DNA of 64,000 nt from a phage, in the NCBI GenBank assembly GCA_024572335.1, contig GCA_024572335.1_3052.1; one strand, written 5' to 3'. The notes under the pieces were generated by a model. It was not told the DNA's origin and ran no database searches. It saw only the letters and a list, made by a program, of their open reading frames with translations. Both the position numbers and the translations under genes were made by a program. Shown here in pieces: positions 24,536-36,331 of the stretch (position 1 is the first letter of the stretch; every line of letters starts with the position of its first letter).

Positions 24536-25009
24536 TTATTTGAACGATTTAACGTACTGAATAGAACCCTTACTATTCACAAAGGCAATTTTACCATTTT
24601 TATTATACATGGTAGCAGTACGCTGATAACCATAGGTTTGTTTACCAGATTGATAACCAACTAATGCAAAATTATCTTCACCCATTTTATTCTGTTTAGC
24701 GCGAATGCGTTCATGACCATGTGCCATAAGAACCTTAGCATCACCAGTTGCAATGGATCGACGAGTTTTTTCATCTTCAACTGCATTAACAAAGTCGTCA
24801 AATGAATCAAATTTAGCATGAGATTTATTATACAATTTTCCATCTACTGCATAATTATATCCCTGTACATCCATCTCAACTTCTGTACCATCATCCAATA
24901 CAGCAGTAATTTTTTGACCTTTTTTAAATTTCAAAAGATCAGTAAAAGATTCAGCAATAATTTGAGAATTAATAGCTGCTTCAGTGATAAATTCTTGATA
25001 TGTTTTCAT
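24536..25009 (-). CDS. internal-protein-like head protein with capsid targeting sequence
   Basis: N-terminus MKTYQEFITE|A matches the T4 IP leader MKTYQEFIAE ending at a gp21 cleavage site; early promoter 25064-25093. Confidence 0.7.
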   Translation of the reverse strand: MKTYQEFITEAAINSQIIAESFTDLLKFKKGQKITAVLDDGTEVEMDVQGYNYAVDGKLYNKSHAKFDSFDDFVNAVEDEKTRRSIATGDAKVLMAHGHERIRAKQNKMGEDNFALVGYQSGKQTYGYQRTATMYNKNGKIAFVNSKGSIQYVKSFK

Positions 25010-25063: not shown

Positions 25064-25093
25064 ATACTATCACAATTCTAGGAGAAAGTAAAC
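25064..25093 (-). promoter_or_regulatory. early promoter upstream of the IP-like gene
   Basis: GTTTAC (25088-25093) - 18 bp - TAGTAT (25064-25069). Confidence 0.5.
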
Positions 25094-25097
25094 AACT

Positions 25098-26066
<969 letters not shown>

Positions 26067-29267: not shown

Positions 29268-29297
29268 ATAGTACCATGGAAGGACAAGGATGTAAAC
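29268..29297 (-). promoter_or_regulatory. early promoter
   Basis: GTTTAC (29292-29297) - 18 bp - TACTAT (29268-29273). Confidence 0.55.
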
Positions 29298-29440: not shown

Positions 29441-29467
29441 AACCTTTCGGCTAGGGCTAAGAATGTT
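29441..29467 (-). terminator. intrinsic terminator, copy B of a duplicated 31-bp element
   Basis: minus-strand GCCCUAGCC-GAAA-GGUUGGGGC + UUUUU; one substitution relative to 29986-30012. Confidence 0.65.
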
Positions 29468-29939
29468 ATTTGATTTGTTTAGCAGACCAAATGCGGTCTT
29501 TAATAATTTTTTGGATGTCTTCAACATACTCAAGAGAGTGAGCATGTGGGTTATCTTTGAAACTATAAGCACGAGCTAACTTTTGACCTTCAGTTTTGAT
29601 TACTAAAAGCTCTTTAAGGATAGCTTCATATTTGGAGATAATTCCTTTAACAATATTTTTCTCTTGTGCGACTTTAGGATCTGCTTTAGGAGCAGGTTTA
29701 CCCGAAGCCTTTGCAAAAGCAGCGCCAGTAGCAACTAAACTTTTCCAGGCCATACTAACTGCATTTCCCGTAAATCCTTCTGCTTTCATGTCGCGAGCAA
29801 ATTGGAATCGTGATTCATCAGAAGCATCTTTATAGGAATATTTACCCGCTGCAATGGCTGCTTTTGCGACAGCTTGAATTTCGGTGCTAGACGCTTCATT
29901 TAACACCGCTTCATTTAAAAATTGAGTATATGATTTCAT
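29466..29939 (-). CDS. candidate packaged internal protein with variant capsid targeting sequence
   Basis: N-terminus MKSYTQFLNE|A (variant of MKTYQEFIAE); own TATAAATA late promoter 29976-29983 and AGGAAA SD; flanked by duplicated terminators. Confidence 0.6.
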   Translation of the reverse strand: MKSYTQFLNEAVLNEASSTEIQAVAKAAIAAGKYSYKDASDESRFQFARDMKAEGFTGNAVSMAWKSLVATGAAFAKASGKPAPKADPKVAQEKNIVKGIISKYEAILKELLVIKTEGQKLARAYSFKDNPHAHSLEYVEDIQKIIKDRIWSAKQIK

Positions 29940-29975
29940 CTTATTTCCTGTTTTAATTTGTAGATTTAATATACT

Positions 29976-29983
29976 TATTTATA
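29976..29983 (-). promoter_or_regulatory. late promoter (TATAAATA) of the CTS-protein gene
   Basis: minus-strand TATAAATA about 37 bp upstream of ATG 29939. Confidence 0.55.
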
Positions 29984-29985
29984 CT

Positions 29986-30012
29986 AAAAAGCCCCAACCT
30001 TTCGGCTGGGGC
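29986..30012 (-). terminator. intrinsic terminator, copy A, ending the tRNA/stable-RNA transcription unit
   Basis: minus-strand GCCCCAGCC-GAAA-GGUUGGGGC + UUUUU. Confidence 0.65.
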
Positions 30013-30018
30013 TAAGCC

Positions 30019-30320
30019 TTGCGGCAACCTTGTCGGGGTTCCACCTGCTAAGGCAAGTGTTTGTACGAAACGCCGGGATTCGAACCCGGTTATCAAGCAG
30101 TTGACGCTACTCAATATTTTTAAAAGGCCATATCTCGACCATATCCGAACGTTCCGTCAAAAACGCTACTCGGCTTACGGCAAAGATATTTCCTCGAATC
30201 GATAATTCGGTGCGCCGTTTCTGCTGTGATATAAGGGGACATTAACAAAACATAAAGATTTATTAATGCCAGTCCTTAAACAGGGAACATCAGTCCGACG
30301 ACTTACCGGTAGCGACCCGG
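30019..30320 (-). ncRNA. candidate small stable RNA(s) with a tRNA-like T-arm (compare T4 species 1/2 RNAs)
   Basis: non-coding 300 bp between an ORF and terminator; perfect T-arm CCGGG-TTCGAAT-CCCGG at 30071-30090 but no pairing acceptor stem or anticodon arm. Confidence 0.35.
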
Positions 30321-30324
30321 TTTC

Positions 30325-30675
30325 TTAATATTCTTTTAAAGCATCAATCTGTTCACGGCGTTTACGCCATAAATCAATTGCTTCATACGCAGATTCAGCA
30401 TTTCGAATTAGCCGGCATTTATGTAAAGACTTATGATTTTGATATTGTGTAGATAATGGAATTGTATCTAAAAGGTCTTTACGATCAAAGTATTCGTAAC
30501 CATCTAAACCAAATGAACGATTTTTGAGAAATTGCCAATGGCCAAATTCATTTTCAACATAAACATAATCTGCATGCTGATAAAGTAAATTAATTACACG
30601 TTCAGAAATAGCAGTATCATTATGATTAAAATAGAATGTTAAATCATGAACTACTAAATAAACATTACCTTTCAT
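30325..30675 (-). CDS. hypothetical protein (116 aa) between the tRNA cluster and the stable-RNA region
   Basis: ATG 30673-30675 (complement) after GAGGAAA SD; the ORF-track TTG start at 30723 would overlap tRNA-Arg. Confidence 0.45.
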   Translation of the reverse strand: MKGNVYLVVHDLTFYFNHNDTAISERVINLLYQHADYVYVENEFGHWQFLKNRSFGLDGYEYFDRKDLLDTIPLSTQYQNHKSLHKCRLIRNAESAYEAIDLWRKRREQIDALKEY

Positions 30676-30693
30676 ATTTTCCTCACTTATAAT

Positions 30694-30770
<77 letters not shown>

Positions 30771-30777
30771 TATTTTG

Positions 30778-30849
30778 CGGACGTGATAGGATTCGAACCT
30801 ATAACCAATCGCTTAACAGGCGATCGCTCTGCCATTGAGCTACACATCC
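30778..30849 (-). tRNA. tRNA-Asn (anticodon GUU)
   Basis: acceptor GGATGTG/CACGTCC, anticodon arm ATCGC-CTGTTAA-GCGAT, T-loop TTCGAAT; no encoded CCA. Confidence 0.75.
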
Positions 30850-30853
30850 AAAT

Positions 30854-30940
30854 TGGTGGGGAGTGGTGGAGTCGAACCACCCGAGTCGCAATGACAATGA
30901 ATTTACAGTCCACACCGCTACCTCTACGGGATAACTCCCC
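30854..30940 (-). tRNA. tRNA-Tyr (anticodon GUA), class II with long variable arm
   Basis: acceptor GGGGAGT/ACTCCCC, anticodon loop CTGTAAA (as in E. coli tRNA-Tyr), T-arm GGTGG-TTCGACT-CCACC, CCA; D-arm atypical. Confidence 0.6.
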
Positions 30941-30949
30941 AAATTAATT

Positions 30950-31024
30950 TGGTGGCCCTGGGTGGAATTGAACCACCATCTGGCGATTATGAGTCGCTTG
31001 CTTGAACCTTCCAGCTACAGGGCC
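30950..31024 (-). tRNA. tRNA-Ile (anticodon CAU, probably lysidine-modified, AUA-reading)
   Basis: acceptor GGCCCTG/CAGGGCC, anticodon stem-loop GCGACTCATAATCGC resembling E. coli ileX, CCA encoded. Confidence 0.75.
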
Positions 31025-31025
31025 T

Positions 31026-31101
31026 TGGTGCTGATTAACGGAATCGAACCGCCGACCTTCTCATTACAAGTGAGTTGCTCTACCTACTGAGCTAAATCAG
31101 C
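31026..31101 (-). tRNA. tRNA-Thr (anticodon UGU)
   Basis: acceptor GCTGATT/AATCAGC, anticodon loop CTTGTAA, T-loop TTCGATT, CCA. Confidence 0.8.
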
Positions 31102-31106
31102 AAAAC

Positions 31107-31196
31107 TGGCGGAGGCGATAGGATTTGAACCTATGAGTCGCCGGAGCGACTGCCGGTTTTCAAGACCGGTGCATTAAACCACTCTGCCACGCCTCC
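31107..31196 (-). tRNA. tRNA-Ser (anticodon UGA), long variable arm
   Basis: acceptor GGAGGCG/CGCCTCC, anticodon arm CCGGT-CTTGAAA-ACCGG, T-loop TTCAAAT, CCA. Confidence 0.8.
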
Positions 31197-31198
31197 AG

Positions 31199-31273
31199 TC
31201 TCCATACAAGGATTTGAACCTTGGACCTCCTGATCCCAAATCAGGCGCTCTACCAAACTGAGCTACACGGAGT
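31199..31273 (-). tRNA. tRNA-Pro (anticodon UGG)
   Basis: anticodon arm CCTGA-TTTGGGA-TCAGG, T-arm CAAGG-TTCAAAT-CCTTG; 2 nt from tRNA-Ser; no encoded CCA. Confidence 0.75.
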
Positions 31274-31282
31274 AAATTAAAT

Positions 31283-31356
<74 letters not shown>

Positions 31357-31361
31357 AAATT

Positions 31362-31448
31362 TGGTGCGAGAAGTGGGACTCGAACCCACAAGGAAATCAT
31401 TCCGCAGCATTTTAAGTGCTGTGCCTTTACCAATTTGACCATTCTCGC
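31362..31448 (-). tRNA. tRNA-Leu (anticodon UAA), long variable arm
   Basis: acceptor GCGAGAA/TTCTCGC, anticodon arm CAGCA-CTTAAAA-TGCTG, T-loop TTCGAGT, CCA. Confidence 0.8.
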
Positions 31449-31449
31449 G

Positions 31450-31522
31450 CTGGGAATAAAGGACTCGAACCTTTGCATCCTGGAATCAAAATCCAGTGCC
31501 TTACCAACTTGGCTAATTCCCA
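31450..31522 (-). tRNA. tRNA-Gln (anticodon UUG)
   Basis: acceptor TGGGAAT/ATTCCCA, anticodon arm CTGGA-TTTTGAT-TCCAG, T-loop TTCGAGT; 1 nt from tRNA-Leu. Confidence 0.8.
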
Positions 31523-31619
31523 ATTATTAACAAAGGCTCTCAAGCAAGAACCCTTGATGATAGAGGGTATTAATCAGTGCGGTATGAGTTAATAATAACA
31601 AATAATTCTTAAAGCATAT

Positions 31620-31907
31620 TTACCATTTATGATAATACATATTTACGATGCACTCAAGACCCAAAGGATTCTTGAAAATATCATATTCAAGAGGACCTTT
31701 TTCTGTTTCAATAAAGAAATCAAAATTTACTGTATTAAATTTACGGTCTTCCTTCACTAATTTAACTTGAGAAGATGAACGGTCAACATAAACCTTTTCA
31801 ACTTCAAAACATGTTAAAACGCCATAATCATCAATCAAGGCTTTAGCCGCGTCTTGATCATATTTATATCCATTTTCAATGGACGATACTTTAGCATAAA
31901 GAATCAT
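31620..31907 (-). CDS. hypothetical protein (95 aa)
   Basis: ORF. Confidence 0.45.
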   Translation of the reverse strand: MILYAKVSSIENGYKYDQDAAKALIDDYGVLTCFEVEKVYVDRSSSQVKLVKEDRKFNTVNFDFFIETEKGPLEYDIFKNPLGLECIVNMYYHKW

Positions 31908-31909
31908 TA

Positions 31910-32290
31910 TTACCCTTCATCAACAATAGTATGAGTGTGGGCATTTACAATTTGCCACCAATCAAAGCGATTAGAACCATACATTGGTTTGTTCTCATTT
32001 TCTTTGATAATGTCACGGAGTTCATCTTCGGTAGCGGCTTTCGCGATTAAATCAGCATATCCACCGCGAGGATAATAATTATCACCTGCAAAAAGTAAAA
32101 AGTTTGGTTTAATGTTATTGAACTCTTCAAGAGTAATAACTGTTCCACCAGGTTGAACAATATCTACATAACTATATCCTAATTTTTGAGCAGCATCTAC
32201 TGCTTCAAGCAGGGTATCATGAGCCCATCCAATTTGGCAATCTGGCTTTTCAGATGGATTAGCCTGATAATCCGCGTACACTTTATACAT
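31910..32290 (-). CDS. hypothetical protein (127 aa)
   Basis: start MYKVYAD at ATG 32288-32290 (complement), abutting upstream ORF stop. Confidence 0.45.
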   Translation of the reverse strand: MYKVYADYQANPSEKPDCQIGWAHDTLLEAVDAAQKLGYSYVDIVQPGGTVITLEEFNNIKPNFLLFAGDNYYPRGGYADLIAKAATEDELRDIIKENENKPMYGSNRFDWWQIVNAHTHTIVDEG

Positions 32291-32291
32291 T

Positions 32292-32477
32292 CTATTCACC
32301 TTTAGAAATTTTATCCATAACGATAGCAATTAAACCAATTAAAAATGCTACTACAAGTGAAAATACATTTTCTGCTGTAGTTAATAATCCGCATATAAAT
32401 CCAACAAACATTGAAAAACTAAAAGCAGAAGCAGAAATTGCAATAGCAACATTTCGAATTAATTCACAACGTTTCAT
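32292..32477 (-). CDS. small membrane protein (61 aa)
   Basis: GAGGAGAA SD; two hydrophobic helices; early promoter 32506-32535. Confidence 0.45.
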   Translation of the reverse strand: MKRCELIRNVAIAISASAFSFSMFVGFICGLLTTAENVFSLVVAFLIGLIAIVMDKISKGE

Positions 32478-32505
32478 TTTATTCTCCTCAGTAGTTGATA
32501 GGGTA

Positions 32506-32535
32506 ATAGTATCACAACTAAAACCCTATGTAAAC
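32506..32535 (-). promoter_or_regulatory. early promoter
   Basis: GTTTAC (32530-32535) - 18 bp - TACTAT (32506-32511). Confidence 0.55.
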
Positions 32536-32553
32536 AACTTTGTGAAAAATTTA

Positions 32554-32838
32554 TTACAAAAGATTTTTAGCAATAATTTTAAGCTGAGCTACTGAAATAT
32601 GCTTGGCTTTAAACAAAGCAGTTTCTTCAGCAGGGGAGATAACGATTGTAGCACCATCTTTCTTAGCGGACCATCCATCACCCAGGTAAACAGTACCTTT
32701 GACTTCTTCGCCATCAACCAGGCTAATCATCGGTTTACCTTCACGTCCTTTGTTTGCTTTAATAACTTCAGAAGTAAGGGTCGCTTCAGTCAAAGTAGAA
32801 GCGTTAGTGGTTGAAGTGAATTCTTGATAAGTTTTCAT
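32554..32838 (-). CDS. internal-protein-like head protein with capsid targeting sequence (ipI-locus position)
   Basis: N-terminus MKTYQEF...LTE|A; gene sits upstream of 57B as T4 ipI does; early promoter 32869-32898. Confidence 0.65.
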   Translation of the reverse strand: MKTYQEFTSTTNASTLTEATLTSEVIKANKGREGKPMISLVDGEEVKGTVYLGDGWSAKKDGATIVISPAEETALFKAKHISVAQLKIIAKNLL

Positions 32839-32868
32839 TTTATTTTCCTAATTAATTTTGATGAGGTA

Positions 32869-32898
32869 ATAGTATCACTACCTCATCAGCATGTAAAC
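32869..32898 (-). promoter_or_regulatory. early promoter of the ipI-locus gene, -10 in the loop of a 9-bp inverted repeat
   Basis: GTTTAC (32893-32898) - 18 bp - TACTAT (32869-32874); arms gatgaggta (32860-32868) / tacctcatc (32879-32887). Confidence 0.55.
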
Positions 32899-32910
32899 AA
32901 CTTTGTGAAA

Positions 32911-33595
<685 letters not shown>

Positions 33596-33596
<1 letters not shown>

Positions 33597-34321
33597 TATA
33601 GTACCTTTAGTGTATTTTTAATTTTAGAAAAAAGTTCTTCAAGAGAACCATCGTTTGTAATTACTAAATCACCATCACGAATTGGCAATCCAGCTTCTGT
33701 AATATGTGTATCATTGGATTTTTGACCAGGACGAACTACATGAATTACTGTAGCACCCATCGCCCTAGCCGCATCCATTTCATGATCTTGACGGGTATCA
33801 GGAACGATATAATAATCATAACCTGAGTTAAATTTATCAAGATAATCTAAAGCAAATAATTTTACCCAGTACATGCGGTCGAAGTTATTAACAATCAAAT
33901 CCGTACCTAGGGCTTGCATCAGACGACGGACTGACCATTGATCTTCAATATTATTTATAACGTCAATAATCTTGTTAAATGCTACGGAATTAACTGATTC
34001 TTGTCCTTCGTCATCAAAAACAAACACACCCTTAATTGGGCTTTTACCATTAAGATAGCAAAATGCTTGTTCCATAATCGTGATTACTTCTAATTTAGTC
34101 AGATTTAAATTAGTCTCACGATCATAGTCAATTCCTTCAAACTCTTTACGAGTTAAGCAAGGATAGCCAGTGTTTGCTGCAAATACTCCCCATGCATAAG
34201 CCAATGCATCCTTAATAGGACCAGCAAGTTGGTATTTAACTGCAGAATAATTGCTCATGATAAAATCAGCAGTAGTATCTTTTCCACTACGCTTTACACC
34301 GCTTAAAAAGATTAGTTTCAT
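33596..34321 (-). CDS. 1: deoxynucleoside monophosphate kinase gp1
   Basis: 241 aa from MKLIFLSGVKRSGKDTT (P-loop) with GAGGAGAA SD; ORF-track start lies upstream of the SD. Confidence 0.85.
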
Positions 34322-34370
34322 GTGTTTCTCCTCAAATTTAATTAAGATTATAACACACAAAACTGAAGCA

Positions 34371-34901
34371 TTAAACTTCTGCTATAATTTTTCCATCTTT
34401 TTCTACTTGAAAATAGGTGTAAGGAATCGTTGCAGTACATACTAAAGCCGGGTCTGAATCTTCCGTATAGCTAAATTCTACTTCAGATAGGTCAGAAACC
34501 CAAGGCTTATAAAAATTTATTGACATCACGATTTCAGTTTTGCTATTATCTAAGATGTAAAGCGTAATGTACTCAGGACCTGTTTTTTGGGCAGTATTTT
34601 CACCTGTAAGATAGTTGCTAGTTCCTAGCATCCATTCATACATTCCTATCCATGACTTAAGTTCTTCATCAACTATAAATCTCACAATGAGTGGATCATA
34701 CTCAAATGTAACACCTGGACGTTGTGCTCGGCCCAGTCCAAACGGCCCAGTCACGGTATCAGTAACAGGTATTCTAATTCCTGGAATAGGAACTGACTGA
34801 GCATTTAAAGTAAAAGCAGATGTAGTATTACTATGTGGTATTGATACTACAAAGTTAGTTGTATTTGCTTGGTTAAAAATTTGTTGCAGAGCTTGCGACA
34901 T
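34371..34901 (-). CDS. 3: tail sheath stabiliser/tail completion protein gp3
   Basis: 176 aa from MSQALQQIF with GAGGAA SD; size matches T4 gp3. Confidence 0.8.
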   Translation of the reverse strand: MSQALQQIFNQANTTNFVVSIPHSNTTSAFTLNAQSVPIPGIRIPVTDTVTGPFGLGRAQRPGVTFEYDPLIVRFIVDEELKSWIGMYEWMLGTSNYLTGENTAQKTGPEYITLYILDNSKTEIVMSINFYKPWVSDLSEVEFSYTEDSDPALVCTATIPYTYFQVEKDGKIIAEV

Positions 34902-36284: not shown

Positions 36285-36295
36285 TGGATTCTCCT

Positions 36296-36303
36296 TATAA
36301 ATA
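36296..36303 (+). promoter_or_regulatory. late promoter for gene 53
   Basis: TATAAATA about 30 bp upstream of ATG. Confidence 0.6.
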
Positions 36304-36310
36304 GATAATA

Positions 36311-36318
36311 TATTTATA
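36311..36318 (-). promoter_or_regulatory. late promoter for gene 4 (divergent from gene 53 promoter)
   Basis: minus-strand TATAAATA. Confidence 0.55.
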
Positions 36319-36331
36319 AACAGGAGGGCCC

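Follow-up and report, generated by a model that had tools for sequence, protein, structure and literature searches.

The ipI gene and its product

The window, by which we mean the whole 64-kb stretch of phage DNA that was analysed, carries the gene order tRNAs, trna.2, trna.3, trna.4, ipI, 57B, 57A, 1 and 3, which is that of T4 and of phage BECP11. The ipI gene is found between 57B and trna.4, adjoining the tRNA cluster, and this agreement with T4 bears out the original placement of the gene at the ipI locus. Several Tequatrovirus genomes, those of BECP11, ESh32 and CAM-21 among them, match the segment from 32400 to 33000 at 100% identity. The genes and their parts are:

32554–32838, minus strand: ipI coding sequence including the stop codon, 94-aa internal protein I precursor (ORF list, Pfam, PHROGs and T4 match)
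32785–32838, minus strand: capsid-targeting propeptide, residues 1–18, MKTYQEFTSTTNASTLTE (homology to 2JUB_A)
32557–32784, minus strand: mature IPI*, 76 aa (identity to PDB 2JUB)
32292–32477, minus strand: trna.4, 61-aa predicted membrane protein, downstream of ipI (phrog_1692; annotated in T4 as 'conserved hypothetical predicted membrane protein')
32911–33366, minus strand: 57B, the Acb1 anti-CBASS phosphodiesterase, upstream of ipI (Pfam PF23474, E 1.1e-59; T4 synteny)

Two anti-defence genes, those for Acb1 and for the GmrSD inhibitor IPI, adjoin one another here with a promoter-hairpin cassette alone between them. The tRNA cluster (30694–31522, minus strand) contains 10 genes, for Arg, Asn, Tyr, Met, Thr, Ser, Pro, Gly, Leu and Gln; the T4 complement is 8 tRNAs plus segB. 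A tRNA-His gene that BECP11, otherwise a near-identical phage, has between Arg and Asn is missing from the window.

The 94-aa ORF, which starts MKTYQEF on the minus strand just as first described, is by sequence comparison the orthologue of T4 ipI. It matches Pfam family PF11634 (IPI_T4), described as 'Nuclease inhibitor from bacteriophage T4', with 173 bits (E 1.3e-51) over profile positions 1–76 of 76, where the curated cut-off is 25 bits, and its PHROGs match is phrog_4363 'internal virion protein'. The sole PDB match is 2JUB_A ('Internal protein I'), to which residues 19–94 are identical at 73 of 76 positions (96%, E 7.5e-43), and full-length alignment with T4 IpI (NP_049749) gives 91% identity. 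Six of the nine differences from T4 IpI fall in the 18–19-residue propeptide, a one-residue deletion included; the interior of the propeptide has this deletion and four substitutions, and the start of the protein is more IPII/IPIII-like, with MKTYQEF rather than the MKTFKEF of T4. The mature part has three conservative substitutions, V46, V83 and Q85 here for I, A and H in T4, and all three are also present in the ipI of the sequenced phage LF82-1. Otherwise the two proteins are alike, being of equal length save for the one propeptide residue, with the same xTE|ATLTSEV cleavage point and with genes that have the same neighbours, promoter and hairpin. Across the three sequences compared (the window, T4 and LF82-1) most IPI variation is in the propeptide interior (residues 4–17), and the mature inhibitor is almost invariant. 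By tblastn an ipI homologue is found in 291 phage records, with at least 99% identity in 19 of them and 100% in some, such as Yersinia phage phiD1; exactly this protein is encoded by other sequenced Tequatroviruses. The ipI gene of the window is already known, and is the T4 allele rather than a new one.

In the alignment with 2JUB_A, the solved chain of mature IPI*, residue 19 (A) of the ORF falls on the first residue, which upholds both the capsid-targeting N-terminus and the predicted prohead-protease site LTE|A. The pattern MKT(Y/F)(Q/K)EF followed by (L/I)xE|A that typifies the family is present as MKTYQEF...LTE|ATLTSEV, with a predicted mature product of 76 aa. In T4 the N-terminal leader of Ip1 directs packaging, the protein is then injected with the DNA, and Ip1 inhibits GmrSD of E. 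coli CT596, a type IV enzyme that cuts glucosyl-hmC DNA (PMC12373910, PMC3012670). From the 96% identity to this characterised protein we infer the same sequence of packaging, cleavage and GmrSD inhibition here: the N-terminal targeting sequence (MKTYQEF...) would carry the 94-aa precursor into the assembling prohead, the prohead protease would cut it after LTE18, and the 76-aa IPI*, injected with the DNA, would block a GmrSD-type type IV restriction enzyme attacking glucosyl-hmC DNA.

In the original prediction the mature region was held to be unlike T4 IPI, and an allelic replacement was proposed in which the targeting sequence is kept and the mature part is unrelated to IPI* and possibly directed at a different restriction target. 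Alignment with T4 IPI, set beforehand as the comparison that could overturn this proposal, gives high identity throughout, and an unrelated mature region is ruled out by the 73 of 76 residues shared with IPI*; the proposal rested on a mistaken picture of the T4 IPI sequence. Replacement of this kind is real at the ipI locus in RB32 and RB15, where ip5, ip9, ip7 and ip8 are found, and in IMG/VR contigs with other genes that have a capsid-targeting sequence (CTS), and the specificity of Ip proteins for GmrSD, on which the three altered mature residues could bear, is reported to be strict (PMC12373910). In the window, where the mature part scores 173 bits on the Pfam IPI_T4 profile, where the three variant residues recur in LF82-1 and where the exact protein is found in other phages, a replacement is very improbable.

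The promoter and inverted repeat upstream of ipI

The interval of ~90 bp from the 57B stop codon to the ipI start codon is organized as a cassette, with an AT-rich stretch containing the upstream stop codon followed by a strong sigma-70 T4-early promoter, a hairpin that overlaps −10/+1, a Shine-Dalgarno (SD) sequence and, last, the ipI start codon. The elements of this cassette and of a second copy, on the other side of ipI, are:

32899–32913, minus strand: AT-rich 5′ part of the cassette, TAATTTCACAAAGTT, opening with the 57B stop codon (direct repeat D1)
32892–32898, minus strand: −35 element GTTTACA of a T4-type early promoter (promoter scan; identical in T4)
32879–32888, minus strand: 5′ arm of the inverted repeat, TGATGAGGTA on the transcribed strand (repeat search, 100% complementary)
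32869–32877, minus strand: TG-extended −10 element TGATACTAT, in the hairpin loop (promoter scan, repeat search)
32859–32868, minus strand: 3′ arm of the inverted repeat, TACCTCATCA (repeat search, RNA and DNA folds)
32495–32547, minus strand: second cassette copy, with the trna.4 early promoter (direct repeat D1, 53 nt, 81% identity, spacing 363)

The promoter scan places the −35 hexamer TTTACA at 32897–32892 and the −10 hexamer TACTAT at 32874–32869, with a 17-nt spacer, and the T4 early −35 consensus is GTTTAC (PMC1524935). The −10 hexamer is within the 10-nt loop (GTGATACTAT) of a perfect inverted repeat, an arrangement noted from the start and recovered by both the promoter scan and the repeat search, with the amendment that the arms, perfect as described, are 10 bp long and not 9. 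As RNA the stem extends to 13 bp by the addition of three G.U/U-A pairs to the 10 perfect ones. The RNA fold of a 91-nt segment has an MFE of −20.5 kcal/mol (z = −3.65) and that of a 41-nt segment −17.4 kcal/mol (z = −7), and the single-stranded DNA fold of the stem has an MFE of −8.1 kcal/mol (z = −5.0). Promoter and palindrome are base-for-base identical in T4, whereas the adjacent coding DNA has diverged by ~10%. Since the −10 box ends at 32869, the ipI transcript is predicted from −10 spacing to start near A32862, inside the 3′ arm, such that the mRNA from this promoter would lack the hairpin and only read-through RNA would carry it.

The stem is followed by AAAAUUAAUU rather than by a U tract (the sequence after the stem reads AAAATTAATT, with no T tract), and no U tract was seen after any promoter stem in the window. 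A terminator scan of 31500–34500 calls nothing at the palindrome on either strand. An Rfam scan of 29900–33500 at E≤1 returned only tRNAs and chance-level matches, with no family that fits the hairpin; the best match over it is SNORD11B at a chance-level E of 0.77. The nearest late-promoter motif, TATAAATA, upstream of ipI on the minus strand, and the only one, is at 33952–33959 within gene 1.

Taken by itself the palindrome is no more than chance would be expected to produce in 64 kb. The window has 9 perfect inverted repeats with arms of at least 9 bp and loops of 3–20 nt, compared with 7.8 ± 2.6 in dinucleotide shuffles of it, and 3 with arms of at least 10 bp, compared with 2.5. The argument for a selected structure therefore rests on the recurrence of such stems at promoters and on covariation of their arms. 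There are 17 minus-strand sites in the window at which a T4-early −35/−10 pair is followed by an SD sequence and a start codon; in 41-nt segments running from the spacer to +18, six of these 17 fold with an MFE of −12 kcal/mol or lower, as do 1.4% of 500 random 41-mers from the same strand (binomial about 8e-8). In these six promoters (32897, 32534, 28959, 28570, 22397 and 17392; z from −4.1 to −7.0) the stem encloses or overlaps the −10 box, and the promoter at 25092 has a seventh, weaker stem. The stem sequences are unrelated to one another, and about half of the window's early promoters have no dyad at all.

The stems at the −10 boxes of promoters 28959, 28570, 22397, 17392 and 25092 (−35 coordinates) have z values from −1.9 to −6.0, and the promoters at 29296, 18204, 14617 and 13178 have in common a conserved downstream TACTATACAACTATCAAC and lack a stem. 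The early promoters seem to fall into two classes.

The arms of the cassettes vary in matched fashion in T4, RB32, RB15, slur04, Pu-Krd-SF7, LF82-1, Klebsiella phage Roth79 and three IMG/VR contigs. Arm pairs across phages include:

5′ arm GATGAGGTA, 3′ arm TACCTCATC
5′ arm GATAGGGTA, 3′ arm TACCCTATC
5′ arm ATAGGACT, 3′ arm AGTCCTAT
5′ arm AGGATGA, 3′ arm TCATCCT

In ten same-register cassettes, a small sample of related sequences, 85% of cells are paired, as against 33–61% when the partner column is slid; of the ten pairs, six have changed on both sides, and one shuffle in 500 attains the observed covariation score. The count is limited to these ten because stem registers differ (in LF82-1 ipI, Roth79 and the window promoter 28959), and one fixed-register structure fails to fit all cassettes. 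As evidence of a selected structure the covariation is supportive rather than conclusive. Together with the conservation in T4 and the enrichment at early promoters, it supports the interpretation of the hairpin as a selected structure. Whereas the loop holds the −10 box here, in LF82-1 ipI and Roth79 the box falls in the 3′ arm, and the ip7 promoter cassettes have weak stems (−2 to −4 kcal/mol), from which it follows that the hairpin is not obligatory. Varying register and the weakness of some stems both argue against a role that needs exact promoter geometry.

Cassette copies, PeSLs and the role of the hairpin

The ipI gene is bracketed by the two cassette copies, which share the AT-rich 5′ part and flanks but have different stems, that of the trna.4 copy being ATAGGGT/ACCCTAT (32523–32529 and 32498–32504; −12.6 kcal/mol, z = −4.1). 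The same AT-rich part also precedes ip5, ip9 and other ip genes elsewhere. In RB32, RB15 and an IMG/VR contig (L008) ip5 is preceded by a cassette of the upstream type with the identical GATGAGGTA stem; in RB32 and RB15 the ip5, ip9, ip7 and ip8 genes that stand in place of ipI have cassette copies before them, and the RB32 annotation records flanking 43-bp direct repeats. Other CTS genes are situated behind the cassette in the IMG/VR contigs L006, L008 and L009. At 95% identity or more the 90-nt cassette is present in 420 phage records, compared with the 291 that have ipI. A scan of IMG/VR with the 19-nt 5′ part of the cassette found only 8 loci, 3 of them unrelated and with no promoter or gene, the GenBank phage collection being much richer in cassettes than IMG/VR.

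Two further arrangements are suggestive of exchange. In Escherichia phage slur04 (2015–2090) trna.4 comes directly after 57B, behind one cassette only, and the locus lacks an ip gene, which is consistent with deletion by recombination between flanking cassettes. In IMGVR_UViG_3300045988_118042 (L009; 3481–3560) the cassette before an ip9-like gene is chimeric, with a 5′ arm TGGGGT of the trna.4 type bearing an A-to-G change, a 3′ arm ACCTCA of the ipI type, and a stem preserved through G-C and G.U pairs; it looks as if a crossover within the loop had been followed by a change that restored pairing. Comparative traces that may reflect recombination between cassette copies are the single copy in slur04, the L009 chimera and the exchange of ip5 for ipI behind an identical cassette.

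Elements of this organization have been described in the T4-like phages, where Arbiol et al. (2010) defined them as promoter-early stem-loops, or PeSLs (PMC2839356). By the account given there, Repoila et al. (1994; EMBO J 13:4181) had reported PeSL-like sequences, built on T4 early promoters and with AT-rich stems, at the two T-even IP loci, so that the cassette has been described since 1994 and named since 2010; Comeau et al. (2014) extended the PeSLs to the PST/T4 pair (PMC4122927). The PeSLs of RB49 and phi1 act as promoters and terminators and recombine into mini-circles, and the stem-loop of one RB49 PeSL lowered lacZ expression to the same degree as the rrnB T1 terminator, termination in lacZ reporters being demonstrated only for RB49 PeSL211/210 (PMC2839356). 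The elements associated with T-even IP genes have 'weaker, more AT-rich' stems than the RB49 PeSLs, and readthrough attenuation, which the original prediction also raised, is a function already proposed in print for the class (PMC2839356).

The ipI cassette resembles a PeSL in being an AT-rich intergenic stretch that runs from the upstream stop codon through an early promoter, with −35 and −10 boxes 17 nt apart, and a stem-loop over the −10 box (10 perfect bp, 13 bp as RNA) to an SD sequence and start codon. It also does so in its tandem copies around small, variable accessory genes, in the occurrence of the same cassette before different genes in related phages, and in its hybrid and single-copy (deletion) forms. 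It differs in having a T4 early promoter (GTTTAC.. TGnTAYTAT) instead of a near-perfect sigma-70 consensus, and an AT-rich stem with neither polyG/polyC nor a following U tract; terminator and mini-circle activity, moreover, has been demonstrated for RB49/phi1 and not for the T-even type. With intrinsic terminators it shares a stable, intergenic RNA hairpin 3′ of a stop codon, but it has no U-rich tail, only 4 of its 10 stem pairs are G-C, and it overlaps an active promoter; a scan of both strands for a G+C-rich hairpin with a U-rich tract did not detect one at this position. We therefore favour an ordinary T4-type ipI gene behind a T-even PeSL-like cassette, with the hairpin acting as a partial attenuator or barrier, at a probability of about 0.88, and gene identity and cassette class together are near certain.

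The hairpin does not look like an operator recognised by its sequence, or like a canonical intrinsic terminator, and both readings were weighed along with chance. That the palindrome is a functionless accident, and the promoter alone matters, is in keeping with inverted-repeat counts no different from those of shuffled sequence. It is nonetheless very improbable, given a palindrome unchanged in T4 beside diverged coding DNA, hairpins at six of 17 early promoters as opposed to 1.4% of random segments, and compensatory changes across cassettes. An operator, raised in the original prediction, would have a dimeric phage or host DNA-binding protein reading both arms and repressing the early promoter. 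Repressors classically bind where this perfect 10-bp dyad lies, across the −10 box, and T4 shuts off its early transcription a few minutes into infection in a way that is incompletely explained (PMC2988021). The dyads found elsewhere are unrelated in sequence (GATGAGGTA, ATAGGGT, AGGCTCAT, TGGGAGTA, CAAGGTTA, ATAGGACT and AGGATGA), and seven promoters of the window and the cassettes of other phages differ in dyad sequence, arm length, register and loop. That arm sequences differ from promoter to promoter while remaining complementary argues against a shared operator: it is the pairing that is kept and not the sequence, and with dyads so varied, or absent from about half of the early promoters, no single protein could read them all. 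We consider an operator highly unlikely.

A true terminator of 57B transcripts, which would leave ipI expressed from its own promoter only and insulated in the manner of the RB49/phi1 PeSLs, has in its favour the rrnB T1-like effect of an RB49 stem-loop (PMC2839356) and a stable RNA hairpin here (−17.4 kcal/mol over 41 nt, z = −7) located just 3′ of the 57B stop codon. It is contradicted by the AAAAUUAAUU that takes the place of a U tract, by the lack of a call in the terminator scan, and by the more AT-rich T-even stems (PMC2839356). Furthermore, the internal protein is a head protein needed late, and because the sole upstream late-promoter motif is in gene 1 its late mRNA must cross the hairpin, which argues against efficient termination; read-through seems required. 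Full termination is thus unlikely.

On the favoured reading, a T4-type ipI gene behind a PeSL-like cassette, the hairpin would be carried by transcripts from 57B or from the late-promoter motif in gene 1, and on this read-through RNA would act as a partial attenuator, a pause site or a 3′-end barrier. The paired cassettes would supply flanking homology for the swap, gain and loss of ip genes among T-even phages. As to whether the hairpin serves in attenuation or 3′-end protection, in DNA-level recombination, or in both, the odds are about even. Two departures from the favoured reading, improbable when judged jointly, concern the hairpin and the protein. The hairpin, whose 3′ end is always within a few bases of the predicted transcription start and whose arms covary, may be selected for something other than termination: a hairpin or cruciform in supercoiled or in single-stranded replicating DNA could mark cassette boundaries for targeted recombination, or could present the −10 box as single-stranded DNA, speeding open-complex formation on freshly injected DNA. 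Separately, the IPI* form with V46, V83 and Q85 might have a GmrSD specificity shifted from that of laboratory T4. The ipI gene itself, encoding a well-characterised anti-restriction protein of solved structure, carries little weight as a discovery. The two useful corrections are that ipI is the T4 allele, with no replacement, and that the hairpin is supported, by covariation and by enrichment at early promoters, as a selected structure.

Other internal-protein-like genes and late-promoter motifs

A second CTS gene is located at 24536–25009 (minus strand), directly downstream of the lysozyme gene e (25098–25592), and encodes a 157-aa protein starting MKTYQEFITE|AAINSQ... with matches to Pfam DUF7412 (E 9e-96) and to the PHROGs family phrog_3155, 'internal virion protein'. 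A stem also surrounds the −10 box of the early promoter that serves it, whose −35 element is at 25092. We take the gene to occupy the ipII/ipIII place on the T4 map; if so, the internal-protein allele in which the window departs from T4 is this one rather than ipI.

Another 157-aa ORF, at 29466–29939 (minus strand), begins MKSYTQFLNE|AVLNE, with a CTS-like N-terminus and a protease-type xxE|A site. Its PHROGs match is phrog_2280 (unknown function), and no Pfam family matches it. From these N-terminal features it may encode an injected internal protein, so far unrecognised, at a site other than the two classical ip loci.

Two divergent late-promoter motifs, TATAAATA, make up a perfect inverted repeat with 9-bp arms (TTATAAATA / TATTTATAA) at 36295–36319, where the minus-strand block of genes meets the plus-strand one.
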